A stretch of DNA of 62,804 bases, filler included. It is 5 parts of 5 records of this genome, joined end to end, with 100 filler letters (N's around TTAATTAATTAA, not from the genome) between each part and the next. Parts side by side here need not be neighbours in the genome. Positions count along the whole stretch, not along the records: positions 23,114 to 28,986 come from SRR2962707_3812; 4 more parts are not named here. One strand, given 5' to 3'. Below are positions 3,922 to 29,086 of this stretch, piece after piece. Within the stretch, counting starts at the first letter, position 1, and the number at the start of each line of letters is the position of its first letter. Below the pieces are notes generated by a model that was given only the letters and a program-made list of their open reading frames with translations, was not told the DNA's origin and searched no databases. A program made the position numbers and the translations under genes.

Positions 3922-4004
3922 ATCGGTAAATCAATATCGAGAATGTGTAAGAAATGTGCAGGGCAGGGCTTGCCCCTGTGAGAATCGGTCCCTAGACTTC
4001 ATTC

Positions 4005-4023
4005 GTTATTGATAATTATTACT
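4005..4023. promoter_or_regulatory. Putative Fur box upstream of the ECF sigma gene
   Basis: GTTATTGATAATTATTACT, 14/19 match to the Fur consensus. Confidence 0.7.
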
Positions 4024-4072
4024 ATCCGTTATTCGATTCTATTTGCTGCCATGTCCGGACGATGACCCGCTG

Positions 4073-4591
4073 ATGATGACGAACGCCATGCAAACCGACA
4101 TCGGTTCGCTGTATCGCGATCACGCCCATTGGTTACAGGGCTGGCTGCGCCGGCGCCTGGGTGGTGACGGCGCTGATGCCGCCGATCTGGTCCAGGATAC
4201 CTATGTCCGGTTGATGGTCTCCGGCCGCTTTCCCGCGCCAGAGCAGTCGCGAGCGTTCCTGGCCCGCATCGCCAATGGCCTGATGATCGATATGCATCGC
4301 CGGCGCCGGCTGGAGCTTGCCTACCGGGAAGCCCTGGCGGCACTGCCGGAAGAAAGCGCGCCTTCCGCCGAGCAGCGTGCCGTGACCCTGGAAACCCTGA
4401 CCCGCGTTGATCAGGCCCTGGACGGTCTGCCATCCAAGGTGCGTGAGGCGTTTCTTTGTTCCCGTTTCGAGGGGCTGACCTATAGCCGCATCGCCGAGCG
4501 GTTGGGCGTCTCCCATGGGTCCGTTCGCAAGTACATGCTGCGTGCCGCCCGGTCCTGTCTGCTGGCGCTGAACGAATTAGAACCGGTATGA
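4073..4591 (+). CDS. FecI-like iron-starvation ECF sigma factor
   Basis: LYRDHAHWLQGWLRRRLG, DAADLVQDTY, region 4 EGLTYSRIAERLGVS; exact start uncertain. Confidence 0.92.
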   Translation: MMTNAMQTDIGSLYRDHAHWLQGWLRRRLGGDGADAADLVQDTYVRLMVSGRFPAPEQSRAFLARIANGLMIDMHRRRRLELAYREALAALPEESAPSAEQRAVTLETLTRVDQALDGLPSKVREAFLCSRFEGLTYSRIAERLGVSHGSVRKYMLRAARSCLLALNELEPV

Positions 4592-5589
4592 GCGACGCTT
4601 TACCTGGTTCCCTGCGCCAGTACGCCGACCGCCATGGCCTGGACGTCGACAGCCTGCAAGCCGCTCTGGACTGGCAGGTGTTGTTCTGGTCCGGGGAGCA
4701 GCAGCCAGCGGACCAGGAGCGCTGGCACCACTGGCTCAACGCCAAAGCGGAACATCGTCACGCCTGGGACGCGGTGGCGCGAATGGCGGGCACCTTGGGG
4801 GCGCTGAGTCCGCGGGTGGCGCGCCATACTCTGAAGCAGCCCTCCTCGGCCGGCCGGCGCCGGGTGCTGGGTACCCTGGCGCTGGCGGGATTGGGCTCAA
4901 TGCTGATGTTCGCCGGGACGGGGGGCGGGCTCTGGCAAAGAGCGATGGCGGATTACCGTTGCGCCCGTGGTGAGCAGCAGCGGTTCCGGCTGGAAGATGG
5001 TTCGTCATTGATACTGAACACCGCCAGCGCCGTGTCGGTGGATTTTGGCCATGGCCGGCGGCGGATCTCCCTGGTGCCGGAAAGTGAAATAGCCCTGGAT
5101 ACGCGTCCCTCCGCCCTGCATGACACCGGCCCGTTGTCGCTGGCTTTGCCGGCGGCATTGCTGAGCTTGCAAAACGCCTGGCTGACCGCGCGTGACCTGG
5201 GGCAGGGGGCCGGCACGGTGGCTGTGCTGGCCGGCGGAGCGCAACTGGTTACCGCCTATCCGCGGCAGGGCGCCATCACTCTGAATGCCGGCCAGCAGGT
5301 TCATTTTGATCCGGGCGGGCTGTCGGTGACGCCGTTGTCCCGGCAGCGGGCGCTGGCCTGGACCCGGGGCGTATTGCAGGCGGACCGTTGGCGGCTGGCG
5401 GATTTTCTCGATGAGCTGAGCCGTTACCGCAACGGCGTGCTTTATTGCGACGATGAAGTGGCGGATCTGATCGTTTCCGGCGCTTACCCGGTCAGGGATA
5501 CCGACTATGTGCTGGAATCCCTGGCCCGGGCGCTGCCGGTGGCGATTCATTACCGCACCCCCTGGCTGGTGCGCGTGGGGGCGGTTTAG
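4588..5589 (+). CDS. FecR-like anti-sigma/signal transducer
   Basis: N-terminal W..WL....H..AW, RRRVL plus TM segment, LEDGSSLILNTAS, AWTRG...ELSRY. Confidence 0.92.
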   Translation: MSDALPGSLRQYADRHGLDVDSLQAALDWQVLFWSGEQQPADQERWHHWLNAKAEHRHAWDAVARMAGTLGALSPRVARHTLKQPSSAGRRRVLGTLALAGLGSMLMFAGTGGGLWQRAMADYRCARGEQQRFRLEDGSSLILNTASAVSVDFGHGRRRISLVPESEIALDTRPSALHDTGPLSLALPAALLSLQNAWLTARDLGQGAGTVAVLAGGAQLVTAYPRQGAITLNAGQQVHFDPGGLSVTPLSRQRALAWTRGVLQADRWRLADFLDELSRYRNGVLYCDDEVADLIVSGAYPVRDTDYVLESLARALPVAIHYRTPWLVRVGAV

Positions 5590-5707
5590 CGTTTCGGCCG
5601 CCCAATGGCGTGCACGAATCGGGATCCGAAAAAAATCCAACTCGGGGTAGCACTTTTCCGGCTCCCGTTCGGGATAACAGGTAATACACCCTGTTAAGGA
5701 TCGGAAC

Positions 5708-7951: not shown

Positions 7952-7958
7952 CGCTCGT

Positions 7959-10364
7959 TCAGCGAACCTGATCGACGTCCTTTTCCGCCGCCGCGTCATC
8001 CAGCACATAAGCGATCACGGCATCGCGGCTCGGGCCCCGGGTGCCGATGGCGCTGTGTCCGCCGGCAACCACCAGCAGGATCTGCCGGCCGGTGTCGTCC
8101 AGATAGGTCATCGGTGTGGCGTGACCGCCAATGGGCAGATGGTCTTCCCATAGCGTGCGCCCGCTGGTGAGGTCGTAGGCGCGCACCTTGTTATCCAGGC
8201 CGCCGCTCATGAACGCCACGCCGCCGGCGGTGATGATCGGTCCGCCGATATCCGGCACGCCGATGGTCACCGGCAACGCGATCGGTGACGGGTAGCCGAT
8301 GGTGCCGTTGCGATGGCGCCATACCACTTCGCCGGTACGCAGATCGGCGCCGGCCACGTAACCCCAGGGCGGTTGCTGGCAGGGCAGGCCCAGTGGCGAC
8401 AGGAACGGTTTCATCTTCACCGCATAGGGGGCGCCATAGTTTTCGTTGGCGCCGGGCCCCCGTGAGGAAACATGGCGGCTATGGTCGTCTTTTCTGGGAA
8501 CCAGAGTGGAGACGTAGGCGAGATAGGAGGGCGAGGTGAATGCCACCTGGCGGACCGGATCCACCGCCAGGGCGCCCCAATTGAATACGCCGAAGTTTCC
8601 CGGGTAAATCAGGCTTCCTTGTTCCGAAGGTGGTGTATAACGGCCCTGGTACTGAAGCTGGCGAAAGCGGATGCGGCAAAATAATTGATCCACCGGCGTG
8701 GCGCCCCACATGTCCCGCTCACGCAATGGCGGTGGATTGAAGTTGAGGGCGGAGCTGGGCTGGCTGGTGGCCACGGTCTGATAACCGAGACTGGCCGGCG
8801 CCGGTTGTTCACGTACCGGCAACACCGGATCGCCGGTGCGGCGGTCGAGCACATAGATGTCGCCCTGTTTGGTCGGTTGCACCAGCACCGGCACGCGGCC
8901 CTGGGGGGTATCCAGGTCCAGCAGGCTGGGCTGTGCCGGTACATCCATGTCCCAGAGATCGTGACGCACGGTCTGAAACACCCAGCGCACCTTGCCGGTG
9001 GCCAGATCCAGCGCCACCACCGAGGAACTGAAACGTTCGGCATCGGGGTCGCGCTGTTCCCCCCATTGATCCGGAGTGTGATTGCCCATGGGCAGATAGA
9101 CCATGCCCAGAGCTTCGTCGACGCTGGCCACCGACCAACTGTTGGGACTGCTGGCGCTGTAGGTTTCGCCCTCCGGTAGCGGTTCGGTCCGTTCCGGGTT
9201 GCCGGGGTCCCAGTTCCACACCAGCCGGCCGTCGTCCACATCGTAGGCGCGGATGACACCGGAGGGCTGGGAGACGGAAACGTTGTCGCTGATCAGGCCG
9301 CCGATGATCACCAACTGGTCAGTGACCGCCGGTGGTGAGGATGGATAGTAGAGCGGCGGCTCGGGATTGGGCATGCCGTTCCAAAGGTTTACTTCGCCGT
9401 TGTCGCCAAACCGGGCGCACCGTTCACCGGTGTCCGCGTCGAGCGCGATGAGGCGGGCGTCGGCGGTTGGCAGGAACAGCCGTTGTTCACAATGCAGATC
9501 TTCCGGATCGATCAGGCTGTCCCGTTCGCTGCCGGTGGCGGCGAGCATTTCCTCTGGCTGTGGATTGGTGCGTTCCACCGTGGCCAGCGGCGGCTGACGA
9601 TGACCGGGGAAATAAGCCACGCCGCGACAGATCTGGCGCCGGCGATTGAGCTCCGGTTCGATGTCGGGATCGAAACGCCAGCGTTCCACGCCGGTGGTGG
9701 CGTCCAGCGCGATCAGCTCATGGCGCGGCGTGCACAGGTACAGGGTGTCGCCCACTTTTAGCGGCGTGGCCTCGAACGTGGTGGTGTCGGTATCGCCGGT
9801 ATGGAATACCCAGGCCCGGCGCAACCGGGTCACGTTGTCGGGGGTGATTTGCGTCAATGGCGAATACCGCTGGCCCAAGGCGGTACGTCCGTAGGCGTGC
9901 CAGTCTCCTTTGGGTACCAACTCGGAGTGGCCGGCGTCCGGGCTGACCGGGCCGGGCAGCTCTCCGTTCAGATCATGGGGGTCCTGATAGTAGCCGACAG
10001 CGGCAACCGCCGTGCTCAGCAAGACCGCCAGCAGCAAGGGCGCGCGCCCGCCCCGGATCGGGGACGTCACGCCGGGAATCACCAGCAGCAAACCAAACAG
10101 CACCAGCAATGCGCCGCGTGGCGCCAGGGCCCACCAGTCCAGTCCTGCCTCCCACAGGCTCCAACCGAGGGTGCCGATCAACAGTAGAGCGTAAAGACCA
10201 AGGGCGCTGCGCCGCTTCATCAGCAGCAGCAAGGCGCAAAGCACCAGCACCGCGCCAGCCACCAGGTAATAGGGGCTGCCATTCAGGGATACCAGCCAGC
10301 CGCCGCCGGCGGTCATGGCCAGACCCAGCAGTAGTATCAGCAGGGCGATCACCACACGAATCAC
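7959..10364 (-). CDS. gcd: Membrane-bound PQQ-dependent dehydrogenase (glucose/quinate/shikimate family)
   Basis: N-terminal TM bundle, DWHAYGRT..GQRYSPL, HDLWDMDVPAQP, PCQQPPWG, ATPMTY. Confidence 0.93.
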   Translation of the reverse strand: MIRVVIALLILLLGLAMTAGGGWLVSLNGSPYYLVAGAVLVLCALLLLMKRRSALGLYALLLIGTLGWSLWEAGLDWWALAPRGALLVLFGLLLVIPGVTSPIRGGRAPLLLAVLLSTAVAAVGYYQDPHDLNGELPGPVSPDAGHSELVPKGDWHAYGRTALGQRYSPLTQITPDNVTRLRRAWVFHTGDTDTTTFEATPLKVGDTLYLCTPRHELIALDATTGVERWRFDPDIEPELNRRRQICRGVAYFPGHRQPPLATVERTNPQPEEMLAATGSERDSLIDPEDLHCEQRLFLPTADARLIALDADTGERCARFGDNGEVNLWNGMPNPEPPLYYPSSPPAVTDQLVIIGGLISDNVSVSQPSGVIRAYDVDDGRLVWNWDPGNPERTEPLPEGETYSASSPNSWSVASVDEALGMVYLPMGNHTPDQWGEQRDPDAERFSSSVVALDLATGKVRWVFQTVRHDLWDMDVPAQPSLLDLDTPQGRVPVLVQPTKQGDIYVLDRRTGDPVLPVREQPAPASLGYQTVATSQPSSALNFNPPPLRERDMWGATPVDQLFCRIRFRQLQYQGRYTPPSEQGSLIYPGNFGVFNWGALAVDPVRQVAFTSPSYLAYVSTLVPRKDDHSRHVSSRGPGANENYGAPYAVKMKPFLSPLGLPCQQPPWGYVAGADLRTGEVVWRHRNGTIGYPSPIALPVTIGVPDIGGPIITAGGVAFMSGGLDNKVRAYDLTSGRTLWEDHLPIGGHATPMTYLDDTGRQILLVVAGGHSAIGTRGPSRDAVIAYVLDDAAAEKDVDQVR

Positions 10365-10372
10365 GAAGCACC

Positions 10373-10482
10373 TCCTAGAGCCTGTTCACGATCTTTACGC
10401 CAGCGCAACCCGAAGGGCCGGGTCCCTCTTGTGCCCTCCGGGTATTTGCCGTCAGACCGCGATTACGCTTGTTTATGTAGAA
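10373..10482. repeat. Probable dispersed repeat/MITE end at the contig break
   Basis: TCCTAGAGCCTGTT at 10373-10386 is the exact reverse complement of positions 20-33. Confidence 0.5.
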
Positions 10483-10582
10483 NNNNNNNNNNNNNNNNNN
10501 NNNNNNNNNNNNNNNNNNNNNNNNNNTTAATTAATTAANNNNNNNNNNNNNNNNNNNNNNNNNNNNNNNNNNNNNNNNNNNN
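10483..10582. other. Assembly spacer (N44-TTAATTAATTAA-N44)
   Basis: Six-frame stop linker at 10527-10538. Confidence 0.99.
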
Positions 10583-10605
10583 GAGAGAGAGAGAGAGAGA
10601 GAGAG
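10583..10605. repeat. (GA)n microsatellite at a eukaryotic contig end
   Basis: Direct reading. Confidence 0.9.
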
Positions 10606-11127
10606 TTTGTGAGTGAGTGAGTGAGACGCAGACAGAGGGACACGGACAGAGGGACACGGACACAGATTGGCGAACTCGAACGAACGTTGAAACGCACAAT
10701 GTGCGGCTCGCTGGAGACTCACCCGCTATCGGTTTTATTAAAGACGGTGGGGTGGGGTGGGGTGGGGTGGGGGACTCTCTCGGGTTGCTGGGTTGCTGCT
10801 GGCGACGAACAACAACGAGGATCCGGGTGAGTGGAGGGGACTTCGAAGGGTGGTGGAGTGCGCTGTGGACGACACGAAGTAAAGCATGTGGTGGAGTTGT
10901 CATTCGCTTCGGATTTTGTTGCTGCGCTTGCAGTTTAGCCTTCATTCTCTCTTGTTATTTTTATTTTATTTTATTTTTATTTTTTCCGCTTTCGTGTTTC
11001 GTTTTCAGCGCAGCACTTTTGCGGGCAGCAGCTGCTGCCTTTCTCGTGGCTGGTTGATGCCGGGGATCGGTGGTTGATCTCACGCTCACTCGGCCCGTGC
11101 ACTCGCAAGTGCTTTGTTGTCTGAAGT

Positions 11128-14100
11128 ATGGACGAGCAGAACTCGGAAGCAGACAAGCAGCTCACTTCGAATGCAACCAAGGGGCGCAGCAACGAAGTTC
11201 TTGGGGTTGGAAGCGGTGGTGGTGGTGGTGGTGGTGGTGGTTCAGAAGGTGCCGTCCAGCCCCCGTTGCCACACCCCCAGAAATCGCAGGCGCAGCGATC
11301 ACAACGTTGTCCACATTGCCGCCGCAAGTTTGGATTGTTTTTGAAGCGCAAACAATGTGGACGCTGCGAGCAGAAGAACTACTGCAAAGCCTGCCTTGTC
11401 CCGACGACTTTGCTGACTCTCCCCGATGGGTCACGCTTGACGAAGCAGCGCATGTGCCGTCCCTGTAATCTGGCGGTAAAAATTCCAAGGCTTAAAAAGT
11501 TGCGAAAGCTTCTGAACAGCGCAATAAATGCCGGCGGAGCATACCCCCTTACGTTTCCGGTCGAGACCGCTGATGGATGGCACAAGCTGTACTGGATCGT
11601 TCACTCTGAGCTTCGCAAGATTCAGCGATTCAACAATGATGCAGAATCTTTGAACATTTTTGATCCCGCTGCCCCAACATGGAGTTCATGCATTGACGAA
11701 ATTTACTCGTTGTCCAACCAGTCGGCGTCCTTGTCTGTGATGCAGTTGAAAAACCAAATCTACGTTCAGAAATTGTACCTGTTGCAAACGGACTCCGTTG
11801 CGTACTTGAAGATTGCCGAATGCATCGCCAAATTTCAAAACGCTGCCCCAGGAGAACGGCGACAAGTTTTGCGGTACCTCATGCAAATCATTTTTTCGAA
11901 GATGAAGTCCCTGCTCTTGGGATTGCTTCAGCATGAGGTGGCATTTCGCATTCGACTTGCACTGCCGGGCGAAACGCGCTTGGCAGACTTCTTCCTACAA
12001 TGGTTCATTTTTGGAGACCGCAAAGTTTTGCAGTCGTTACTGCAACTGTTCCTTCATGCCAAACATGACCCGCTTGGCTTCTCTGCATGGCTACGCACTT
12101 TTGGTCGCACGCCTGCCGAGGCTGAAATTACTCTGAACGAATTGGCGACCGGGTATCACGTGTTTTCTTGCGCGAAGCGCCCCGAGCGTGAGCAGCCGCG
12201 CCCTCGCCCATCACTGTCGGCCAGATTGAAGCGGGAAATTGAGGCCAAGGTACGCAAAAGGTTGCCTTTTGTGATTTGCTTTGCCCTCGTCACTGTTTGC
12301 GGCATCTTGTGATTTTTGGGCACAATTGTCGGAATGTTGTTGGGTCCTTTGCAGACAAAAAGCATGGGCGACACGGTAAATGGACACAAAGACCTCTTGT
12401 CTGTGTTGTTTGCGCTCATGCGCGATCGTATCAGGGAAGGAAAAGCAGGCCGCCGTATCAAGAACATCTCCAACTTTATAAAAGGATTTCTCCTTGCGGC
12501 GAACGGTGCGTATGCCTGCTCTTGCCGGACAACGCATTTTGCGAAAAATCCAAACAAATCACATGCTGACTGTGCACTTTTGGATAACGACAACGTAGGT
12601 GCAGATTTGGAGGACGGAGAACGTCAGCGCGATAAAGTGCAGTTTCATGACATGAAGCAATACACCAGCCGTGCCGACTCGTCATTGTTGTTTTACACAC
12701 GATGCGCTGTCGCCGTGTACGGTCCCCTCCTTCTCAACAGCGTTTTTTATAAGCACTATCCACCGGTCCGTTTTTCTTTCTTGACTTTCCATGCGAAGCA
12801 AGCGCTCTATGGGTGTCATTGTTGCCATGTGTCGCTCACGACATGCACGATTATTGTTGCAGGCAAACATAAGTGCTGCCAAGGGTCAGGGGACACCATT
12901 CCAGTATAACCTCATATTCCAACACACTGGTATCCACCGTCACCAAATCATTCACGCTCAATGGGGAGCCTACGACTTCAATCCGCCGCATTTTGTGGCC
13001 GTGGTACCTCACAGACATGAAGTGCTTGTTGCAATCCGGGGCTCAATGAACCTCCGAGACGCCATCACCGATGTTATGGCTGCAGAGCTTCCGTTTCCAG
13101 GCTCTCCGAAGTCGTTGACTCATGCCGGATTTTTGCTTGCTGCACGTGTCAAGTTGAGCATTCTCGGGTTTGTCTCGCTGTTATTTTCCCCGTCGTGCCC
13201 GGAACTGATCTTGTGTGTTTAGTTCATTGACAAAGTGACCATGTTTCTCCGGTCTGCGCGCACTAGGCCTCTTCTTGCTGATGTGATGCGGCGAAACCTA
13301 AGCTTGCGACGAGTGGTCATAGTCGGGCACAGTTTGGGGGCAGCTATCACTACTCTCATGGCCCTTCTCCTGAAACGCAGGTACCCGCAAATTTCCGTTG
13401 CGGCGTACGCAATCGCAAGTCCACCCGTTCTCAGCATGCCGCTGGCACGTGATATTCTCGAGGAGGTAAGTTCATAATCCATCCCACGACGCTGCAGCCA
13501 CTTTGTGAATGAAAGTTGACGCCCGCGTAAGGTTGCATCGCTTGCATATCCTTGCACTTCATGCTCCATGATTCTGTATTGGTTGGCAGGTGGATGTTCG
13601 GTCGTACGTTTTTCGTCACGACCTTGTACCCAGACTGTGCCTTGCATCTTTAGACATGCTGAAGGAACGAGTGTCCAAGGCTCTTGGATCAGGAAAAGAA
13701 CTCATTGCGCAGATCCTCGACAAAAAGAAACGGGAGCGCAAGCTTGACAAGAAACGGCGAGCCGCAGACAAGCAGGTATGTGGGCATTCAATCCAGTTTG
13801 TTTGGAGGTGTCATGAAAGTTGCAGATCAGATCATATGTAAACGTACTGAGAATATCTTGTCTGGGGTTCTGTTGTGCAGCTGATGAGTAAGGAATTGAA
13901 CGAGATGGAGCAAGCTGACCGGAAACACTTCCACAGCGACGACGATGACAATGATGGTGACGATGGGAATCGTGCTGACGAAGACGATGACGACGAGGTG
14001 GAGGTTGACGAGATGGAATTTTCTGATATTGTCAACGATGATGGTATTTTCGACGGAGACAGCGTTGCAAGTGATGACGACGGCCACCACACACCGACAA

Positions 14101-17100
14101 GCGACAGGTTATCGAAGCACAGTGGTTTGAAATCCCGCAGTGATTCTTCATCGAGTGGCAGTCTTGGCAGTAAAAACGAGGACAAAGTGGAGCAGGTCCG
14201 ACTGCAAAGCTCAAGCAAGCTTGGCTCGGCTTTGCATCTGAAACTGCGCGCAAGTATGAGTGCTGATGGTGTCGCAAGTTCTACTTCTGCCAAAAAAATG
14301 CTGCGCCGCGGATCGCACAATAGCTCGTTTTCACAAAGGAATACGCCAGAATCGCGTTTGTGGATTGCCGCAGCTCGTGGTCAAGAGTGGAACGTTTCCC
14401 GTGAGTTGCGCCGCGGTGCCCACATTGTTAATCTCCCAGACCAGTTTGCAATGATGATGACAGAATCAGCTGCACAGCACGAAGACAGAGGCCGTTTGTT
14501 CGCTAGCCGCGCTGACGCGTCTCTCGAAACGAACGCCCTTCATCAGGCTATTTCGAGTACTTTGCTGTTTTCGCAAGAGCGTTGGAGTGCAAATGATGAT
14601 CGAAGCAGTGGCGTCAGCGGTCTTGAAAGCAACACGGACGGAGAGGACAGCTCTGGAGTAGACAGCCCGAGAAATAGTTTACGTCGAAGTCCATCACATT
14701 CCTTTGGCGTTGGGAAGAAGCAATTTGGATTCAAACGGCGATCGTCAATCGACCAACCAACGACTTCAGAAATCAATACTTGTTCTATTCTTGCATTGCT
14801 GCTTGATGCTTTTCCAGAGTCCATCTCCTTCTCAGATCAGAGCGGCCACCAGCCAATTCACTATGCAGCCCGACTGGGCCTCAAAGTTGTTGTACGGTTT
14901 CTTCTTGAGCGCAAGGCAGATCCCAATGCTTGTCCGCCTGCGGATACTCTCCGAGTTGGATCACGGCGTGGTGTTGGTAGCTCCAGCCTGCATACGCCAC
15001 TGCGTGCCAGCCCCAACAAGGTAGGCGGAGGCGTCGGTCACCGCCGCTATACTCCACTCCATTATGCAGTGCTCAAACAAGATTCTTTTGTAGTCGCGTT
15101 GCTGCTCGCGTACAAAGCAGACCCTGATGAAACTGATCACGACCCTCACAGGCCACAGTCTGCTCTTGCTCTTGCCAAAGTGCAGCGCGACCAAACAATG
15201 TACCACATTCTAAGCGGAGATAGTAACGACGTGCTCGATGCCGTATTGTCGCGCTCGCAGCACCGTCCAGTGATCAGCACCCGACTTCCCACGGCACATG
15301 AAGTGGATGACAGCAATATTGCGATGGAGCACGCTGGCGATAGTGCTTCCTCAGATGGCAATGATTTGCACAATCAGCTTGTGCCCTCGATTACCACCAA
15401 AACAAACGTCAAGGACCAGTCTGATGACGACAAGTCGTCAGATGTCGACGAGGAGCTAGTTTCATCCATGTTGGATCGCATTCATGTGGCTGACCCTAAA
15501 ACTGCTTCTCTTCCCAATGAACCTGACACTGGGATAGGTGCGGAAACTGCGGTTCCTCCGCACTTGACAGATGTGCTATCAAGGACTCGAATTGAATCCG
15601 GCCCCGACCGGGGCAAGGCCGTGCCTACCCCAGCCATTGGACGCATGTACAGTGATGGAACACCTGTTGATCTCATCCGCGAGATGGATGACACAGAGCG
15701 CATACTTTCGTCTGCGAGTGACAGTGAGGATGCACTCGAAGCGGCAGGCCTTTCCGGTCGACCTTCCCCACGGCGCAATCCTGATGGGCGCCGCGGTCGT
15801 CGTACAACTGCCACTGTCACTGAGAAAAAACGCGTATTTTTGTACGTTGCAGGGCGATGCTTTCGAATCGTGTCACATGAAGAGTTGCGCAAGTGGAAGT
15901 CTGATGACCAAATTGCCGCTGAGAATACACGCAGCGTTGAGCACACTGGTATTAGTACAACCTTGGTGGACAATCGGTCTGCGAACACATTCTTGAATTT
16001 GCGCACCCTTTTTGACGAACCCACTGTGCCAGCGTCTTCTATGCCAGACTTGCTCAGTTCTCTACGGTCCAACACAGATATACCTCCCCATATCAATCGG
16101 AGTAGCATGTCAGCGCCTGGGCCAGGAGTGGAGGGTGCCATTGGCACGTCTGCCAACGGTGCCTCATCGGAATCATTGACTGCATCCTCATCATCCAGGC
16201 TAGCCCCAAACTCAACCAACGCACTTGCCAATGAGGAGTCGGCCGGCGGTCCATGGGTGAGGAATCGCAATGCCAAAGGTGCGTACGTGGGGGAGGGGGC
16301 CGATCATGGTCGCAATGGGCTTAGCGCGGACTTCAATGACTCAAGTTGCGTGGCGTCCACGACTAGCCGTCGATTCTCTGCCTCGGAGCGCGCGGGCGGT
16401 CGCATTCGCAAACCGTCCGAAAAGAAAAAAAGGCGCTCAATAGGACGCTTCACAAGCCTGCATCAAAGCTCTGCTCCATCGTTCCATCATGTGGATGTCG
16501 GCCTGGGTGGTGGTTACTTAGTGGAAGTATCTCGACAACACAATCCCGAAAAAATGGTTGATGAGGATGGAAGGGAAATCGAGGAAGATTATGGATGGCT
16601 TCGAGGCATCAAATTAAGTCGTCACATGTTTTCCGACCACATGCCCAACCGATATGAAAAACGGATCCAAGACTGCTCACGCCCGCAGGTCGAGGCCAGT
16701 GGTTGGGTGCGCATGTCCACCGCATTTGGAAGCAAGGGATCGTACGGGACCAAAAAGCGTCGCTATTTGACTATGACTCACGAATATGCCATGGATTTTG
16801 ACAAAAGCAAGGACAGCCAGCGAAAGGATAGTTTTCGCCAGAAACCTTCCACAACCACGACTGACCACGAGAGGTCTGCTACATCTGCAGCAACCACGCT
16901 TTCTAAAATGCGAATCCGTCGACGCCATTCTCAAAAGCTGAAACGACGGCAGTGTGCTGTCCTCCGCGCGTACAAGACTGACCAATGGTTCCGCCGCCCA
17001 AACTTTGCAACGAAGGACTGTCTGTGTCTCTTTCTATCTGGTTTTGCTGAAAAGAAGCGGGGATACCGATCCAGTGAAAGACGCGCGTCTCAGCTCGACT

Positions 17101-18068
17101 TAATGTCAGCGGCGAGCGTTCAATTTCCTCCGACGTCCCCAACGTTGGAAACGGAAGCGGTTGCCACGAGCAGCAATGGCGCACGTCCTGGGACGAAACC
17201 CGCGAAGGAGTCATCTGCGAAGGACGCATGGAATGAGCAGGATTCGAGCGAGCTTCAGTTTGAACCTTTGGACAATGGCCTCGTACAGGTCACGCAACCA
17301 CGGCCCGGAGTACTGCGTGTTGTTCAGTCACTAGAAGCATGGTTGCTGTCTAACGAAGTAGCATATGACGGTCAAAACCGACGCTTTGCGGGTCTCTTCG
17401 AGCAAAAGAAATACACTGGGTTCGAGCTGGAGGAAGGACAATCGGGACCGAACCCGGACAGTGCAGAAAAGGACGGACCGGCAGCGGGGTTGCTGACGCC
17501 ATCAGATTCAGTGGCTGGGGATGGAAAAGAGCTTCCGTTCGAGATGGCTCGACACATTGTCCATTGCCTTGAGCTACGTACGTTGAAGGAATGGCAACGG
17601 TTCCTCTTCAGTAAAACCAGTGAAACTTGGTTTAAAATGCTTGAGTCGAAAAACAACAACCGAACCAGGACAGGGAGCTTTGTTGGATCCGAGAAAGCTG
17701 GTGGTTTTCGAAGGCCAAGCTCAGCTGGCAACGTCGATGATGATTTAACGAATGACGTGTCTAATAACTTTGACCACGAAGAAATAGACTGGGACCTTCA
17801 GGTTTCAATCTTCAAGATTCCTTGCCGGCCAGATAGAGCTTATGCTCAAACAGGTTGGAAAGGATGGGCGGACTGGCTCTGCCAGAACAAGCATGCGGAG
17901 GTGGACGTCATTACGACGGACATTGAGTTCGTTTCTCTGGAGCCACCATCTTCGTCGCACCAAAAGCGCGGCGAATTGGTCGATGCCCAAACGCCATTCG
18001 AGGACTGGTGTGCGTTCATTGCCGAGAGCATGGTTGGGAATCTCAATCCTGTTGAGGAGCATGCATGA
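11128..18068 (+). CDS. Eukaryotic 6-exon gene (~2144 aa): FYVE-like Zn finger, class-3 (DAG-lipase-like) lipase, ankyrin repeats, PH-like C-terminus
   Basis: Exons 11128-12249, 12355-12765, 12863-13147, 13223-13465, 13590-13775 and 13881-18068 join in frame across GT-AG introns. Motifs: CPHC..KFGLF..RKQCGRC, AIRGS, HAGF, VGHSLG, HDLVPR, FSDHMP, PIHYAARLG, TPLHYAV. Confidence 0.8.
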
Positions 18069-18194
18069 GCAGTGTTGGAACCAAGTATTCGAGCGAAACA
18101 TGACAAAACTGGGTGTTTTGTGTTTGTTAAATTTAATTGACGTGCTTGTGGTACCAGCACATTCCCTTCAAGTAATGAGATCCATTGAGCAAGT

Positions 18195-21100
18195 TCATTT
18201 GCGCGGAGGTTGTTTTCCTGATGGCTTTCCATCTGCGCCCTGTTGACAGTGGCAGTACAACAACAGGGAAACATATTTCAAAAACCAAGAGCAGGACATA
18301 AATAAATGGATTCGATGTCGTGAACAGCACAAATCAGCACCCTACACGTACGCACCGGCTTGGACAAGCGCTGCAACTTAACAGCAGGGTCGTCCGCGGC
18401 ACCAAGTCCGGTGTTCTCCTTGTTCTTCATTGCGCCATTATTGTCGCCGTCAGTTCGGCGCACCGTTCCTGTAACATGGCCCCCCGCCGCCGACGCTGCT
18501 CCATGAGCCGCATCGGCTTCAGCTTGGGCGGCTGACTGACGGGCAGCCTGCGCACGTGCACCCGAGTCGTCTCGCTGAGATTGCTGCGCCTGCGTGGCAA
18601 GCTGGGCGGTTGCCGCGGCGTTGGCGCGGTTTTCCATGCGGCACTGTGGAACAGGACAATTATTATTGCGGCAGTGCTTGCGGTGGAAAATGAAAACATC
18701 GTTGACAAACTTGCACCGTGCACAGCTTCGTTGTTTGTGCTGCCTGCAGTTTTTCATATGCTCAAACCACAAATGGCGCATGGACAAACACTGGGATCCA
18801 AACTTGGGGCATCGTGGGAGGCGGCAACTCATCACGTGCACGAGCAGCTCTGACTGTTTCTTGTACTGCCGGCGACGGCGCTGTTTGGAAGCCAGCGAAA
18901 TAAATGCATTCGGCGAAGGCTGACGACGCACGAGCGTGTGTCCTGGCTCGTGCGACGAGCCCTGTGTTCGGAAGCACTGCTCACAAAGATCGAACTCAGG
19001 ACACTGCTTGCATCCGTACCATGCACCTTCTAAAGTGACTTTGCACTCGTCGCAAAGTCGATTGGACGGAGGATTAAAGATGTGGTGAAGGAACATCATG
19101 GTTGAGTGCTTTGCGCGGCGAATCTGATCGAACTGGTAAGACTTTTGCTGGCAATGCAAAAGTAGCTCCTCGCGGTCGTTGAAGTAAGGGCTTGACAACT
19201 GCTCGTCGATGTCACGCGTGTCCTTGACACCGAGACGTGATTTTACAAATGTCATTCGTAGCTCGTGAACATGAGGCTTCCCGGCGGGGTGTTGCTGTTC
19301 GGTCGACAGCTGCTGGTGCGCCGTATAGCATTTCCCGCACAAGTGGAATTTGGGGTGCTTCGGCGGTTTATCCTTTTCCCTTTCACGACTGCGTTTGGAA
19401 GTTGAGCCACCCGGCGTTTGTGCAGCAGACCGCGGAGTCACGGCGGCGCTGCTGCCGTTACTCGAGCTTTGCTCTCCATTCTCACCGTCCTTGCTACCCT
19501 TCTTGGCCCCGTTGCCGTTGGGCGCACCTTCGGCAGCATCTTTCCGTTTTGAACTTGTGGCCTTGGATGTGCCGTAATGAAGGTCATTCAGGTAAGCCTT
19601 TGCTTTGGCGATGGCTTCCTCTTTCTCCTTTGTTTTCGCCTCAAGCTCGGCAGCCAACTTTGCGGAACCGCGCTTGAATGTGTGCTCAATCCAGCCTTGT
19701 TCATGCAGGTCATTGCATTCTTTACAGCTCCACTGCTCGCCATGTACAATGAAGTCTTTGCATTCAGAGCACCTTTCGTAAAAATCCAAAACAAGAAAAT
19801 TGTCTTTTGAGTCGTGGACCGTCGCGGCCAGTTTTTTCATCAAGGGGTCACGCGCCGAGCTGGACGTGGAGCCGACAAGAGGGGCATCAGATGAACGTGT
19901 AGCTCGCCGAGAGGACTTGCCCGTCGAAGAAGATGGAGTTGTTGCGGTGGATAAGGAGGTTGCATTGGCCTTGCCGCCACCGTTCCCGAGGGCCCCAGCG
20001 CTGCTGCTGGTACTTTTTTTGTTCGCCTTCATGAGGTCCTTCACGATAATCTCCGCGATCTGTGGCCAGTAGTCACCCAGAAAAAATGGGAGTTTACAAC
20101 AGTTTTCGTCCGTCTTCATGTGCGCATCGTACAAGGTCTGGCATGATGCTACCAATCTGCGGCGATGGCCTTCAATGACCATCATGCGATACCATGTTCG
20201 CAGTCGATCGTTGTTGGGCGTCTTTTGTGTCTTCGGATGACAGTAAAGGATGTAATCCTGCTCCGTGGTCTGCGGCGGGCATGACCAAATGTAGGCCCGC
20301 GTGAATCCTCGCATCTTAACCCAATCAAAATAGCTTAGCAACAACTCGTAGTAGAGCTTCGTCCGCAAGTACTCAGGGCGAAAGTACTTCACACTGTCAA
20401 GGTAGGCAATGTAGCAAGTCTTCTGGTTCGGAGCATGTGCAGTGTCTTCGTCGTACTCTTGCACATACCTGCGATGGCAACAGGCAATTTTAGTCAGCAA
20501 AGGAGGTACAACGGTGAGCAGCAGTTGTGTGCAGCCATATCAAGAATCCATGCGCGAGTCAATGTTTGATTCGGCTTCAAAACTGACATGGCGAAGAAGC
20601 ACACATCCACGCGATCGATTTCCTGAAATAGCAAGATGGCCTTTGTGCGGCCCTTGAAGTCCAGTGTGTAATTGTGCTGCGTCCGCATCCATTCAAGCAG
20701 AAGTGGATTCTTCTTCATGGCAGGAGTATCAGGCGAGTAATCCCGCTCAACATTCGACACACAGCGAACGTAAACATCTTCAAACGCGCGCGAGTCCAGG
20801 TTTTTCGGATCGTGCCCAAGGGCTTCCTTTTCAATCAACCACAAATTTTTGTGACGAGTCATGAAGGTCGAGATGCGGGTCTGTATGTATGTGGTCATTT
20901 TGGTGATTGGTAGATCTTTAGCCCCGCGGTAAGATAAATTCTGGATCGGACCTTCCGATCCCATCTGCACCCGTTCCTGATATAGGCACTGTGGACAAGT
21001 GTAATGAACGTTGCTATTGTCTTCGATGGCAGGCGGCTTCAACCCCGCCTGTGCAGCAGCTTGTGCTGCCTGTACGGCCGCTTGTGCAGCAGCTTTCTTG

Positions 21101-23013
21101 CCGCGTGCCGTGGTGGCACCCTTTCGTTTTTTGCCCGCCGTGGCAGCCTTTTTCGACTTGCGTCCTCCTTTGCCCTTGCCCTTGCCCTTGCCTTTTCCGT
21201 CACGAGCGGTTGCGTTTGTTCGTATTCCAGCTGCATTGGCTGAAACACCTGCGGCAGCAGCGTTCGCTGCAGCCTTCGCCGCAGCTGCAGCCTTTTCTTT
21301 TTCAACGCCAGTCGGGTTGAACAGACCGCATATGTGGTGATACCAACGACGGCATTTCTCGCACTCAATCCAGCCCTCTTCGGGCGTGTGGGTGTGCCTG
21401 TGCTGCACGAGGGAGTCTTTGACTGATTTGTCCTTGATTTTGGAGTAGCATGTCGTACAATAAGGGCGCGAGTCCCCCAATCGGGACGAATAATACGTGG
21501 CGTTGCGGGGAATTTTCTTGATGCACACCGTGCAGTAAAAGATGGGGGGTTGGAGCAGAACCGTCCCACCACCGCAAAGTGCGCAGTGAACGTAGTTGCC
21601 GTCGGGCCCCTTGAGGTTGCGGTTCTTTGCCTCAGCCATGTACATGTGATCAAGCAGCCCTGTGTACTCCTCTTCAAAGTCGGCCATCATTTTGGTGGCC
21701 AAGCCGTGAATCATTTGACCAGGCTTGGCGAACTTAATCGCGTTTTGGAACACCAGGCAAACATCATCGTGTAGTCGCTGCGGACGTTGCCAGGTGTAGC
21801 GACCGTTGGCAAGGCGTTTTTGAATGGTGCCCAGGTCCATAGGACGTTCGACCACTTCCTTGTACTCTGGGATGCGCCATTCCGCAGGGTCGACTGGCTT
21901 GGCAAAGACGAAGCCGAACTCGTGATCGCACATTTTCTTCAACAGGGGCAGAAAGTACATTTGAAGAGTCTTTGCAAGTGTTGCCACACAGAACGCCCGC
22001 CCACCACCGCCGCCAGACACGCCAAGAACATACCGGCAGGGCATTAGTAAAGTAAGTTTTGCTGGCCCTCGCGCGCAAGCATGCAAGAATAGCAGCAGCA
22101 CGTACCTCGGTGGTGTAAAAGGCATTGAACTCGCTGCGAATGCGTGTAAAGTGCATGCGAAGCTGGGTCTGCGTGAAAACGCTGACCAAATCACTAACGT
22201 ATTGCTTCTGGTGCGACTGATGGAAAAGTGGCCAATGCAGTCACACACATGTCGGAAGACAGACCAGGGCACGTCGCACGCCAAGTCAGCACAGGCGAAC
22301 GGAAAACAGCTGCATCGTGCCTCAACACCTTTACACAAACACGGATGCGCCCGCGGTTGAAACAAAAGTTGTGTCTGACCCGCTTACCTGTGACGAAGAT
22401 GCTCCTGATGATGCCGGTCCTTTGATGAGTTTCAGCGTCAACGAGCAGGTGGGACATTGCCGTTGGTTCGGGCACGTCCGAAAATGGTGCCACACTTGTT
22501 TGGTTGTGTGGCAGTGCTTCTCCTTACAACTGGATCCATTCTTGCATTGCTTGACATGCTTGATAAGTTTTTTGAACAGTGGGCACCACTTGTACGAGCA
22601 GGCTTTTCCGGAGTAGCGGCATGAATTGGCATGCATAATGAAAGCCAAGCGATTAGCGCGTCGCCGAACTTCCTCCGATGTCTTTTGTGCCGCTTCCGCT
22701 TGAGCAAGCTTGGCCTTCTCAAGGGCAAGTTTTCTCTCCCGTGCAACACGCTTTAGATTGGCCACGCGCATGGCCTCTTCGCTAGCCTCAGTGGCAGCAG
22801 ATTTCTTCTTCGTCTTTTTCTTTGCTTTTCCTCCCACAGCAGGCGCTCCAGCGGATGGATCGGCACTTGATTGTATTTGCGTTGATGTGTTCCCGGACAG
22901 CAATTCGTTGAGGTGGCTCATGTTCATGGGACCCGAACCACCCCACGACGCTGTGCGCCCTATCTGGGGTTGCCCTTGCAGCGATTGTTGTTGTTGTTGT
23001 TGCTGCTGCTGCT
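18195..23013 (-). CDS. p300/CBP-type (KAT11-domain) histone acetyltransferase, 5-prime truncated: TAZ-Bromo-PHD-HAT-ZZ-ZZ-TAZ
   Basis: Exons >23013-22388, 22216-22106, 21969-20588, 20468-18356 and probably 18239-18195. Motifs: TAZ HANSC..., bromodomain FAKPVDP...PMDLGTI, PHD WIECEKCRRWYHHIC, HAT FFAM/YVQEY, YLDS, IWSCPP, LRTWY, GDYWP, RRAKHST. Confidence 0.92.
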
Positions 23014-23113
23014 NNNNNNNNNNNNNNNNNNNNNNNNNNNNNNNNNNNNNNNNNNNNTTAATTAATTAANNNNNNNNNNNNNNNNNNNNNNNNNNNNNNN
23101 NNNNNNNNNNNNN
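23014..23113. other. Assembly spacer with TTAATTAATTAA
   Basis: Linker at 23058-23069; flanked by (TTG/CTG)n and (GTGC)n microsatellites. Confidence 0.99.
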
Positions 23114-23177
23114 GTGCGTGCGTGCGTGCGTGCGTGTGCGTGTATGTGTGTGCATGTGGTTGGTTCTTCTTGTCCAG

Positions 23178-26100
23178 CGCACGACCAAAGATATCTTTAC
23201 AGCGATTGATAAAAACGGAGACGGCCGAATCGATGTTCGTGGCATGGCTTCGCCTTGTGTTGCCCCATGTGAATCCTTTCGTGCATGGTTTTGGGAATGT
23301 CCTGCACGCTACAGACAGGCAGTTGTTTCTGCGCTGCTGTTCTGATCCATCGATGGTGATGGTTGATTTGCAGTTGTCGGAGCTCTTTGCGGGGTTGTCG
23401 ACTTTTCCTCACGTTGCCCAACACATCTATCATTGGATCGAAGCCCGCTCTCCAAAGGCACGAAAACGTCGGCTGCAGGATGGTGGCTCCGCCAAGTAGG
23501 TTGGCTCTGCTGTGCGGTCAGCACCGTGAGCCATGATTGGTTGTCGATGTGGTTGCCATCTTAGTGCGCTTGTCTTTACCGCTGTTGGGGGCATACATCT
23601 TGCTCTACTCTTGAATGTTCATGAATGCGCATCACTCTATTTGCGTGCATCTGTTTTGCGTTGCTGCCCTGGCCCTTGCTTCTGCTATACCAGAGGTGCA
23701 GTGAGCGAGTTGTCTGGCTTTGCGCGTCACATTTCAGCCATTGTGGACGGAAGCACTGTCTCCATCTCTGAGTTCGAGCTCGAGCAACTCATTGCAGTTG
23801 TCGACGACGACAACTCAGGCACCTTAGATTTCGAGGAGTTGGCTGAGATGTTCGACCACATCGAGGTAGCTGATCCTCACGTACGTTCTGCGGTCCATTG
23901 AAAGCAAAGCTGTGTGATATTCTCGTTTTGACACGTGTGGATCGAATGATTGTCAAACAGGGTGTAGCAAAGGCTGTAGTGTCTGCTATGGATGCTCAAG
24001 AGGACAATGAGATCGATGTTTGTGTCTGCTTTTTTGAATTCCACCTGTTTGCCGATTCCAGCCGACTGATTGCGATTGCACGGTGCTGAGACCGGAATTG
24101 GTTTGCGGTTGTGTTGGAACAGATTGGTGAGCTTTTCGAAACGCTTGTTGCGTTTCCAAAAGTAATCCAGGCTATATCAGACGCACAGCTCTTGTTCGAG
24201 GCAGATTCGGATGACGACGATGGGCTAGATTCTAGCGACGGCTCAGATATGTCCTCGCACCTTTCGAACAGCCCTAGTGCTTCGCGCTTGGTGTCACCTC
24301 GAACTTTGGAAGACATTTCCAATGGCGAACCTTTTGAGAGCAAAAGTGTTGGGGGTGGCAAGGGTCGCACGCATCAAGCGAAGGGATACCAACCTGGCAA
24401 AGGCAGTGATGACCACGCTGTGAGCTTTTTTGACGCACAGGCTCGAATTTCGCCACCACCGCAACTGTTGCAGTTCACGCGCAATCCGAAGCTTGCTCAA
24501 GTGGAGAGCAAGTGTGTCGGACTTCGCCCAGCGCAGGTTTGGACGCAGTGTGTTTGAGGGCTTTCGTAGTTTGCCAATAGCATTTCAGCTCCCAACGTGT
24601 TGATGGCCAGGAACATTGCTCGTGAGTAAAGTTCGTGTTCTCTCATTCGCGTCTTGCAGAACACGTCGCGGGCGTGGAAAGGACTAAATGCCTCTCGGCG
24701 AAAGCACAGTGCTATGAAAGCATCCATCTCAAATCCGTACTTTCCGTCCGGGAACTCTCGAAGTCCCTACGATCCTAAGTGCATCCGTCCTGTATCTGCA
24801 ACAACGACATTCAAGTCATCAGCAGCTATTGACAATGCACTGTGCGTTTGTGCCATGGGTACTGTGTGCAAGACAGATTTGGAACACCCTTAGTGCACCT
24901 CCCGTTTGTGCGAGCTCATGCCTGGCAGAAGATCGTGGTTTGTTGTGGGTTGTTGCGGTGACGTTTTGCGTTCGAATGTGCAATGGCAGGAGGAACAGTC
25001 GAAGGCGTATTCAAACGTTCCGGTTCTCAACATTGGATCGATTTGCGAAAACAAAACCTGCTTCCAAGACTGAAGTTAATCTTCCACCGAACTTTCTTGC
25101 GAAAGGCTCCAATCCAAGCAAGATTCGCGGCGCCGATTGGAGCTCCTACAAAACTGGTCCGTGCATTGCAGTCCGCGGCGTGTCGATGTGTGATGGTGTT
25201 TGCCACGTGTGGACTGCTGGGTTTCGTTGTACCTGACGTTTATGATGACTGCAATTTAACGGTCGACAGGGAGGCAAGATCCTTCAATATGGGCATCTCG
25301 TTTTGACGTTGCTGCAACGTTCGTGTGCATTGCTTTTTATTCATTCATCATTGCTGTCGTGTGCCGCATGCGTTGCAATGTCTAATGGTACCAAGCTGTT
25401 CTTTGTAGTTTTGTTGAGACAGCGATCAAAGAAGGCCTAGCGAGCACTGGAGTTGGAGAAATACCAAAGTACGCAAAATTGTATCATTTTTTTTATCTTG
25501 GATGTCAAATATGCGTGTCGATTGCCTGTTCATGGATGCCAGCAATTTTACAAGGCACCTCATTGTAACCCGTTGTTTTGTGAACTAGGCGACCGTCGAC
25601 GGCGTCGGCACGATTCCCGACTCACACGCGTGAGAAAGGGTTCAAAGATCCTCAGCACTTTTGCTATGACTTTGTTGTGCGTGGCAATGCGGATGGCCCC
25701 AATTACAACCTTTCGAAGATTCAGGATCCACTCAAAAAACCGTCTTCGAATTTTGGTGCCAGCCAAGGTCCGTACTTTTCGCACGCTTTTTAGAAAAGGG
25801 CGAACTGGCTACATTGCCCCGTGCTTATGCTCATTGTTGTATATGCCTATGTGCCCTTGTGCCGTGCCGTGCCGTTGCAGCTCCACGAATTATTTTTGGG
25901 CATGATCAACGGGCCAGCCACGTCAGCCCAGGTGGCGACTCCCCAGGTATAGTCCCGAAAGTTGCTTGGTTTTTGGGGCGGTGACTGCGCTTACTGTGCG
26001 TCGCAGTTAATAGCGATAATTGAAACCGATTTGTTTAGGGCCTCATAACATGCCGATCAACATTCCGGATGGAGCCGACTCAAAGAAGTTCTCCCCTGTG

Positions 26101-26718
26101 AATATTTCGCTTGTCAACAAGCCGACGTTCGTGACCGTTTTTTGTAGCTTGCTGAATGTAGCGTTGCCGTACGTTGCCGGCATACCCAACTCACGATCTT
26201 GAGGCGCTCAACGCCATTGGCTTGATGCATTGTCCAGGTCCCCAAAGTTTTCGTTCGCTCAGGAGGCATATACACCTAACTTTGATGGTTGTGGGAAATT
26301 TCCCAAGGCAAAATCCGGAAACCCGTTGTTCATGTCGGCCAGATTCAATTGTATGTACGACTGTTCGCCGGTCGACCCAATCACTTCAGCATGCGATGCT
26401 TTTGCGAATTGCATTCCGCAACCACTTTTTCATTGTTTCTTGCGTTCCTGCGTTCTTGTTCCCACCCATATCTGTGATATACTTCACTGCTGTAGACAAA
26501 GCCGCTCGAAGCCAAGCCCGGCCTCGAAGTGCCCGACCTCGAGTTCCTTCCAGAGCCGACCCTCGCGCCAAGGAATGAGGTGTAGCGAACGTACCGATAT
26601 TTTCGTCGTGGATTCGATTTCGTTTCTATTTTATTTTAATTTATTCTCGTCCAATACAGTGAAACAGATGCGCGTTCCAACCGAAGGCCTTGCCGGACAG
26701 AACGCACAGTTCTCATGA
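23178..26718 (+). CDS. Eukaryotic multi-exon gene, 5-prime truncated: two EF-hands, a shared uncharacterised domain and PGP (SHIPPO-like) motifs
   Basis: EF loops DKNGDGRID and DDDNSGTLDFEE; exons 25270-25318, 25409-25468 and 25589-25767 splice in frame; SPGPH motif; 3-prime exons and stop uncertain. Confidence 0.65.
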
Positions 26719-26720
26719 CA

Positions 26721-28986
26721 TTAGACCGAGTTGCCGCCAAATCGCGCTGGCACACTTGCTGTCGCCCACTGCTTTCCCTTGCACCGATGTTGCCTCGCAG
26801 CCTGCTTTGCATGTTGCGTGGCCATATCTTCAGCAGGTGTCGGATGGTGATGAAAAACAAGTCCCCCACATTTCACGTCGGGTAGCATGGAGTCGTGGCT
26901 GTGCTGGTCGTTACCGTGGCCGCTTGTTCGCCCCCTACTGCGATGAGTCGTATCGTGCTCATTTCGTCGCTGGATATGGTCGTGACTGTTTGTCGTAGCA
27001 AAACGAGAATTGCATTTTTTGCTTTTGTGCTCAGGAGATGCTGCCTGAAACAGCGCTCGACCTTTGTCAGCTTGCTGCCTCTCGTAGGTTTTCAATTCGA
27101 GCTCGCGATGTGGATGGGCATAGATGTTGTGGCCGTCGATATCGACGTGGTCCTCATCCATCTCCGCGCCCAAGTGTCCACCAACCACTATATCATTGTG
27201 AAACATGTGATTGGGATCGCTCCCAGCCTACCCCAAATATTCATTGCCGTAAAATCAGCGTGTCAACATGAAAAGCAAACTGCTTTTCGATGTGAGGTGC
27301 GAAATGCTAACCACTACACAAGGTAAAGAAATCGGAAAAGTACGCACGTGGTAGCGCGTGTGCTTGCCAAATCTGGCACCGTGGTTGACAGCCTCCGGCC
27401 TGTTGCACAACAGACAAATATATGTATTGGTCATGAGTTTTGAAAGAACATGTTCCTTTGGATGGTAGGTTGATTCCAAGAACATTGGTGAACGTACGTC
27501 GGAACGCAACCAAGATTACAATGCGCTAAAATCTCTTTTGTGCTACCGGGGACGTATCTCCTACGCAAACATGTACGCAGACACTTCCATAAGCAAAAAC
27601 CCTTCTCATGCGCAACGATTACCAAGCCTGATTCAGCGACGGTTTCGGGCATGGCATCACGGACTCTGCGTGTCCGGGGAAGTGTGCGTCCCACGCGATT
27701 GGGTCTGTTCGATCTGTAATCGTGTACAATGCGTGAATCAGAATTTCAATGCATTGGTGTTGTTGGTGGAAGGAGACACATCTTTGCACGGTGGTTGTAG
27801 TTCCGTCTATAACACGAGTGTGATCGCACAAGGTAGCAAACAGTGGGAAGGCAGAGTTGATCGAAGTCACGAACGGCTATGATCTTTGGCCCAATTGGCA
27901 CCATGGGCATGCTCTAGGTGAGTCGTGTCGAAGTCCGATGGCAGCGTGGGATCCAATTGACTGGCCTGGTGATGGCAACAAGAATTCAATGCTGAAGAAA
28001 AGAATTAAGTGCAAACTTTGGCATACAATCATTCAGCCGTGCTCTTCCTCTTTCACCTACCTCACGTGGCTTTTCAAAGCGCTGCGAATGGCTAAAACTG
28101 TGTTTCTCTACACGTCGCGGCGGCTCTACGACCGCCGGCTTAATCATTTCTGTACGCGTTGTCTCCCACATCTGAGGATGGAGCTAAATTCCATTGCATG
28201 ACACACAAACAACAACATGTGCCCGCTTCAAAGAACGCATTCACAAACGCATCCCAAATAGAAAACACATCAACTGCGGCGAAAAAGAACAGAAGTTCTC
28301 AATCAAAAGCACACCAATTTCGGGTCAAATGGGCTTCGTGAATGACCGGGAAACATGGCGTGTCCACCCAGTGGGGCAATTGCCTCGCGATTGTGCTGCC
28401 ATGCGCTCGAGGGGTCCCAGGAAAGCGACTTTACATGACGGGGACGGTGGTGGTGGTGCTTCTTGGAACCCTTTCTTGTTTCACTGCCATGCACACTATC
28501 GCCCCCGTCCTCGTCTTTAGTACCACCACCACCATCGTCGTCGTCGTCGTCTGAGTCTGTGAGTCCGAGTGTCGATCGCTCAAGTCGCATCAGCGACTTA
28601 TTCTTGGAGGTAAAGTCTGCAAATGCCGGCGGCTTTGGCATGGACGACAGCACACTTCGAAACTGCTGTCGTCCGTGAGCAGCCGTTGCAGAATTCCGCG
28701 CAGAAGCGCTTCGATCAGCCTCGTTGTTGTTTTTGTCAACACTGTCCCGACTGCCGCGGCGGCTGCTGCGGGTGGCATCAGCGTTTCGTCCTCCGCTCGC
28801 CTGGATCGACGTAAGCTGCTTGCTAGTTTCCGTCGCAGGTTGCGATTGGGATTGAGATCGGGAGTGAGCAACCGATTGAGAGCGACGAGAGTGGGGCATA
28901 TGGTCGGCCATGTCTTGGTAAAGTTGGTACGCTGCAAACGCTGCTTGCGTAGGAGGAGGATGTTGCTGCTGCTGCTGCTGCTGCTG
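26721..28986 (-). CDS. Eukaryotic gene of at least 7 exons, 5-prime truncated; paralog of the convergent EF-hand gene
   Basis: Exons >28986-28315, 28171-28061, 27965-27875, 27713-27665, 27560-27498, 27399-27348 and 27227-26721; all GT-AG and phase-consistent; polyQ at the contig end. Confidence 0.75.
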
Positions 28987-29086
28987 NNNNNNNNNNNNNN
29001 NNNNNNNNNNNNNNNNNNNNNNNNNNNNNNTTAATTAATTAANNNNNNNNNNNNNNNNNNNNNNNNNNNNNNNNNNNNNNNNNNNN
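28987..29086. other. Assembly spacer with TTAATTAATTAA
   Basis: Linker at 29031-29042. Confidence 0.99.

Follow-up and report, generated by a model that had tools for sequence, protein, structure and literature searches.

Proteins of the STPG/ODF3-like type carry microtubule-binding motifs of the form P-G-P-G-x-Y or P-G-P-x-Y, lying about 40 residues apart and numbering 5 to 12 per protein, in the passages of PMC10105768 that define them. We analysed a stretch of 62,804 nucleotides (hereafter the window), in which contig 23114-28986, record SRR2962707_3812, carries two convergent protist genes that meet tail to tail and encode a common module. The initial annotation described them as an old inverted duplication defining a new domain, and placed that domain with SHIPPO/ODF3-type flagellar proteins; the first half of this description holds and the second is not supported. 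Taken whole, the best explanation is a pair of expressed, ancient inverted paralogues with an orphan module, EF-hands in one copy and a putative binding role, a reading to which we give a probability of about 60%.

Both gene models were built on GT..AG boundaries. Aligned with each other, the spliced products reach a Smith-Waterman score of 171, against 40.4 ± 6.0 (maximum 76) for 500 shuffles (z = 21.8), and BLASTP of the plus product against the minus product returns 28.8% identity over 191 columns with E = 5.2e-17; the comparison with shuffles that had been proposed as a check thus supports a paralogous pair. The shared module is about 230 residues long and is conserved as scattered short motifs rich in aromatic residues, proline and arginine, with 41 invariant columns in an alignment of four genes: the pair in the window and the corresponding pair of a related marine protist. 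It begins near 24420 on the plus gene, inside exon 24123..24536, and near 28674 on the minus gene; the homology claimed earlier is real but reaches this much further 5′. Ten of the 12 peptides quoted for it are contiguous translations at the places given, and the other two span an intron of the minus gene, their halves lying in the open reading frames (ORFs) 27986..28183 and 27867..28004, and 27255..27515 and 26721..27227.

The gene structures agree as well. Three consecutive introns in phases 1, 2 and 2, already recognized in the initial annotation, are common to all four genes, with one of them offset by a single alignment column in the minus gene of the window. Two more introns, both of phase 0, occur in the minus genes of both organisms and in the relative's plus gene but were lost from the plus gene of the window. 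The relative's paralogues have five intron positions in common. A 49-nucleotide micro-exon is present in 4/4 genes, and in the window it occupies 25270-25318 and 27665-27713, exactly as first described. With all position-and-phase slots assumed equally likely, the chance that at least three of six introns fall on five given slots of 759 in the window pair is P = 2.7e-6, and that of at least five coincidences in the relative's pair is P = 1.4e-11. The phase-1 intron that precedes the micro-exon in the relative's plus gene (L002 2619-2696) seems to open with GC instead of GT; no GT donor there retains the frame.

The relative was met both among proteins and in metagenomes. The last 310 residues of the plus model are identical to P0001, a EukProt protein of 310 amino acids (label INCI2744.2.p1). 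A phmmer search with P0001 against 1.84 billion representative proteins gave four at E ≤ 0.001: the query, one ORF from the window and two intron-spanning ORF calls of the related organism. The library entries P0002-P0004 are ORF calls that read through introns. A metagenome scan with P0002 led to three contigs; with P0001 as the query, 88 pattern stretches matched, of which none was confirmed. Two contigs, L001 and L002, are 98.6% identical and were counted as one organism; by tblastn and spliced alignments, both keep the convergent tail-to-tail arrangement. The plus orthologue has EF-hands, module and tail in one open frame from the EF-hands to the stop, and the minus orthologue, on the opposite strand, encodes a protein with a Lys/Arg-rich N-terminal part. 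The upstream module part of the plus gene finds the relative's minus gene by tblastn at E 3e-10. At the DNA level, contig 23114-28986 and L002 share one 95-base match. Over both genes, L001 and L002 differ by five exonic substitutions (two synonymous, three non-synonymous) and three intronic ones, too small a number to bear on selection. Positions 1-300 of L002 consist of tandemly repeated DNA without a stop in any of the three forward frames.

Within the module, plus orthologues are 53.7% identical and minus orthologues 47.5%, against 27.5-29.2% for paralogues in the four cross-comparisons. Since each copy resembles its orthologue more than the gene beside it and the relative's pair shares five introns, the duplication happened before the two organisms separated. 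The comparison of sequences thereby shows ancient paralogues that a local inverted duplication produced, as had been proposed. All three marks of an ancient duplicate pair, namely similarity, shared introns and an orthologue closer than the neighbour, are found here.

Both convergent genes are real and expressed. The evidence comes from X1, one public run that is kept as contigs and only guessed to be RNA, and that contains 0.49 of the sampled words of contig 23114-28986. Two of its contigs skip the introns, with GT..AG borders in the plus gene and CT..AC borders in the minus gene, and therefore derive from spliced RNA. They hold 19 spliced joints, 13 in the plus gene and six in the minus gene. 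All 13 of the former are listed and match the model after the stated cut offsets; two of the latter are listed (27227/27348 and 27399/27498) and match, while the remaining four are counted and fit by length. The three shared introns of the initial annotation are precisely among those that the X1 contigs leave out, and 15 joints in all are listed and match the models. The stop codons of the two genes are 142 bases apart (26579-26720); length arithmetic puts the end of the plus transcript contig at about 26649, and the minus one extends to 26646. The two convergent transcripts may thus meet or overlap at their 3′ ends, contigs of this kind being unable to show true ends.

The plus transcript, spliced at the listed junctions, can be read without interruption in one frame from 23176 until the stop at 26576-26578, and it runs upstream past the contig start. 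It encodes 607 residues, N-terminally incomplete, in the order at least three EF-hand loops, acidic Ser-rich linker, shared module and plus-only tail:

23176..24017, plus strand: EF-hand part, exons 23176-23234, 23374-23495, 23694-23880 and 23961-24017 (X1 contig joints, open frame).
24123..24536, plus strand: exon with the acidic Ser-rich linker (joint 24536/24660, cut +4, frame open across it).
24660..24841, plus strand: module exon (X1 joints, P0001), holding the internal Met at 24706 with which P0001 starts.
24990..25156, plus strand: module exon, followed by the phase-1 intron common to 4/4 genes (X1 joints, intron comparison).
25270..25318, plus strand: 49-nucleotide micro-exon of the module (X1 joints, intron comparison).
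25409..25468, plus strand: 60-nucleotide module exon (X1 joints, intron comparison).
25589..25767, plus strand: exon with the end of the module (about 25685), then the onset of the plus-only PG-motif tail.
25881..26578, plus strand: tail, exons 25881-25946, 26039-26126, 26238-26350 and 26496-26578, with stop TGA at 26576-26578.

The intron set first drawn for this gene was right in its shared introns, but the first intron of the region covered there starts at 24842 and not at 24779, which gives the transcript 21 more codons (P0001, X1). EF-hand_1 (PF00036) scores 26.1 bits on 23695-23880, over the Pfam cut-off of 25.4 (E 5e-06), and the plus gene thus has an EF-hand with a 12-residue loop above that cut-off; the EF-hand exon of the relative scores lower, 17.0 bits. 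By eye, two more loops of canonical-looking 12-residue form were recognized, both interrupted by an intron. EF-hands and module are joined by one transcript contig and one open frame, and some 4.5 kb of sequence upstream of the relative's minus orthologue yielded no EF-hand, in keeping with the earlier statement that only the plus copy has them.

Loops 1 and 3 (23176-23234/23374 and 23961-24017/24123) are both interrupted behind their ninth residue by an intron of phase 0, and a similar helix follows each. Because they are split alike and followed by similar helices, the sequence points to an internal duplication of the EF-hand unit along with its intron.

The minus protein has 518 residues and is cut off at the contig end within a CAG/polyglutamine (polyQ) run. 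It consists of polyQ, Ser/Arg-rich and acidic low-complexity tracts, then the module, then a His/charged-rich tail that is encoded in one last exon of 507 bases, spanned unbroken by the transcript contig:

28315..28986, minus strand: first exon present, low-complexity and polyQ, its 5′ end cut at the contig end (X1 piece 28315-28946).
28061..28183, minus strand: module exon, acceptor 28183 inferred from the length of the transcript contig.
27875..27965, minus strand: module exon (splice model, intron comparison).
27665..27713, minus strand: 49-nucleotide micro-exon of the module (splice model, intron comparison).
27498..27560, minus strand: 63-nucleotide module exon (splice model, intron comparison, X1 joint 27399/27498).
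27348..27399, minus strand: module exon (X1 joints at each end).
26721..27227, minus strand: last exon, with the end of the module (about 27125), the His/charged-rich tail and stop TAA at 26721-26723 (X1 piece 26646-27226).

Between the listed pieces of the minus transcript contig there are 379 letters, which equal 123+91+49+63+52+1. This length fits the five inner exons only with the second exon starting from 28183 and not from 28171; 28183 is most likely its start.

The module appears to be lineage-restricted: by every comparison made, it is a member of no described family and is so far found in two related organisms. The shared domain had been called unannotated, and no Pfam family matches P0001 at E ≤ 10. 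Scanned at E ≤ 1 or E ≤ 10, 18 exon translations from the pair and its orthologues gave no match to the SHIPPO-rpt family PF07004; these scans include 12 exon translations (window and L002) and four members of block A5, and very weak matches could be missed in them, as most of those with E above about 0.1 are discarded by the HMMER filters. The sole Pfam match among exon translations, a 15-bit MID51-like one, was taken as chance. Among 177,635 PDB sequences, neither phmmer with P0001 nor the profiles A3, A4 and A5 matched an axonemal or STPG/ODF3 chain at E ≤ 10; the chance matches, at E 0.02-3, were to a phage baseplate adapter, a viral spike and helicase, and a semaphorin. Outside this organism and its relative, single-sequence phmmer with P0001 found nothing at E ≤ 0.001 in the 1.84 billion representatives. 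Among 716 candidates, the word-index protein search with P0001 returned only itself, and the same kind of search with the minus last exon gave no match to longer proteins. Finally, no described protein is built from EF-hand, acidic linker and orphan module in Pfam, the PDB and libraries of 5.8 billion and 1.84 billion proteins, the module being nameless and hence giving no term for a literature search.

We then have to weigh what such a module does. We suggest that it would be an extended, motif-based binding region lying along a repetitive partner, because short aromatic/Pro/Arg motifs are spread over some 230 residues, the flanks are of low complexity and one copy has a PG-motif tail. The partner would most plausibly be cytoskeletal, a microtubule or the axoneme; the binding of the plus paralogue may be tuned by Ca2+ through the EF-hands, with the minus paralogue as a Ca2+-independent form. 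As a whole, this mechanism is tentative, its odds lying well below even, and the scattered motifs and the ranking in a language-model Atlas feature search hint only weakly at a motif-like, extended module. A sharper version, in which the module would be a cytoskeleton or axoneme binder of MAST-type heterotrophic stramenopiles and the pair would be retained because a Ca2+-sensing form (EF-hands, module and PG tail) and a Ca2+-blind one cooperate on a single flagellum, is a long shot.

The initial annotation went further still and saw in both proteins diverged SHIPPO/ODF3/STPG-type ciliary microtubule binders, the module being a degenerate PG-repeat array and the pair a Ca2+-responsive and a Ca2+-independent flagellar one. 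The Atlas search does lean this way, with SHIPPO-rpt as the common family in 24/30 matched clusters and a top score of 0.91 for the whole protein (180/256 features shared) and 0.88 for residues 1-165, the module part alone; in the nearest clusters, 29% and 55% of members have SHIPPO-rpt. Scores of this size are nevertheless reached by shuffled sequences 4-10 times in 100. Motifs of the P-x-F-S-F type recur, and the relative's plus tail has one exact P-G-P-N-Y, of the P-G-P-x-Y type, with a second P-G-P about 46 residues on, matching the STPG spacing in the cited passages of PMC10105768. The window's plus tail, in contrast, has one P-G-P without the closing aromatic and one D-G-P-N-Y, with no exact P-G-P-x-Y; several spaced PG motifs, as those passages define them, are absent. 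P-G-P is likewise absent from the shared module in 4/4 genes and from both minus proteins, so that it was correctly placed in the plus copy only. Compared by hhalign, module and plus-only tail show no similarity (E 0.76). Nor is there a PF07004 match for P0001 (E ≤ 10) or for the 18 exon translations, or any similarity to solved axonemal STPG/ODF3 chains, and neither the assignment of the module to this family nor its flagellar role is supported by these results. Because the module has no P-G-P, its Atlas recognition is low and its scores are at shuffle level, we keep SHIPPO only as a possible lead to the plus tail and do not classify the module by it, and regard descent of both proteins from ciliary PG-repeat binders as rather unlikely.

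A reading away from motility deserves the same scrutiny. The module could be a domain or set of motifs peculiar to this lineage, with a role outside cilia (e.g. nuclear or regulatory) in largely disordered proteins, its EF-hand Ca2+ input unrelated to motility. The polyQ, Ser/Arg-rich, acidic and His-rich tracts of the minus protein and the Lys/Arg-rich N-terminal part in the relative agree with this, as do the lack of similarity to solved axonemal proteins and the confinement of the family to two organisms; yet nothing points positively to a particular role, and the Atlas lead speaks for the opposite, as do the PG motifs in the plus tail. We consider this reading rather unlikely too. As for an artefact, either an inverted repeat made by the assembly or a chance similarity of non-coding frames, the contig is short (5,873 bases), has a CAG repeat at its end and lies in a window joined from unrelated contigs. 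However, a protein identity of about 29% means no recent repeat, both genes are spliced in transcript contigs and the same pair stands in independent metagenome contigs of the relative; we rule the artefact out on these three grounds and consider its probability negligible.

Several points weigh against the expressed, ancient pair with a binding module. The RNA status of X1 is a guess, and its contigs show neither strand nor transcript ends; a contig that covers the EF-hand part and the module is by itself no proof of a single transcript, and the P0001 model begins at the internal Met (24706), without EF-hands. The family is known from two organisms only, so its age and range are poorly bounded. 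The tie of the module to microtubules, cilia or a Ca2+ response is drawn from sequence only. The Atlas recognition value is 1746, under the level where a high score exceeds weak evidence. AlphaFold2, run on P0001 with no alignment, gave a predicted local distance difference test score (pLDDT) of 38.2 and a predicted template modelling score (pTM) of 0.16, an uninformative model with which the module may still have a compact fold.

The analysis adds an expressed protein family with a conserved gene structure to marine heterotrophic protists, which are very poorly studied. It also gives correct gene models where the public ones are faulty, one being truncated without EF-hands and others being ORFs through introns. 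Should the module bind the flagellar cytoskeleton, the pair would allow a simple comparison, provided by nature, of one module in a Ca2+-regulated and an unregulated form. Orphan families are frequent in protist genomes, so the general interest is moderate.

The label prefix INCI in EukProt may stand for Incisomonas, which is a guess. Incisomonas is a nanoflagellate with a single smooth flagellum, cultured with bacteria, in the part of PMC12614181 that describes it. A flagellar role is possible if the guess is right; the guess is no test of that role.

Five unrelated contigs make up the window, separated by linkers of the form N44-TTAATTAATTAA-N44 (n = 4) at 10483-10582, 23014-23113, 28987-29086 and 52348-52447; features are not readable across these joins. 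The contigs are as follows, with their G+C content (GC):

1-10482: GC 0.64, bacterial.
10583-23013: GC 0.52, eukaryotic.
23114-28986: GC 0.51, 5,873 bases, eukaryotic, with the gene pair.
29087-52347: GC 0.59, bacterial.
52448-62804: GC 0.52, bacterial.

Genes of the bacterial contigs include a TonB receptor, a PQQ dehydrogenase, AcrB and 7TMR-DISM histidine kinases, and those of contig 10583-23013 are eukaryotic (HAT_KAT11/ZZ/bromodomain, ankyrin). On this adjoining eukaryotic contig, 18278-22383 (minus strand) encodes a p300/CBP-like protein with HAT_KAT11, ZZ, bromodomain and PHD, and 13851-18068 (plus strand) is an open frame of 1,405 residues with ankyrin repeats. The gene-pair contig is that of a protist, and the assembly is a mixture of protist and bacteria.

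Three known systems come closest. With SHIPPO-rpt proteins (PF07004; ODF3, STPG1, STPG2), the pair has in common a composition rich in Pro, aromatic residues and Arg, a construction from short motifs and, in the plus copy only, a tail with Pro-Gly-Pro and P-x-F-S-F-type motifs. It differs in having at most two PG motifs, against the 5-12 of the members described in the cited passages of PMC10105768, in matching neither PF07004 nor any solved STPG/ODF3 chain, and in the absence of P-G-P from the module and the minus proteins. Like EF-hand proteins (PF00036 clan), the plus gene has an N-terminal part with one loop over the cut-off and two canonical-looking ones; unlike them, it fuses its EF-hands to an acidic linker and an orphan module of about 230 residues. 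As in orphan families born of local duplication, the members are adjacent and inverted and occur in two organisms only. In contrast to young orphan duplicates, the copies are about 28% identical, share five introns and are retained, together with their arrangement, in two species, which argues for a maintained function and not for a young or decaying duplicate.

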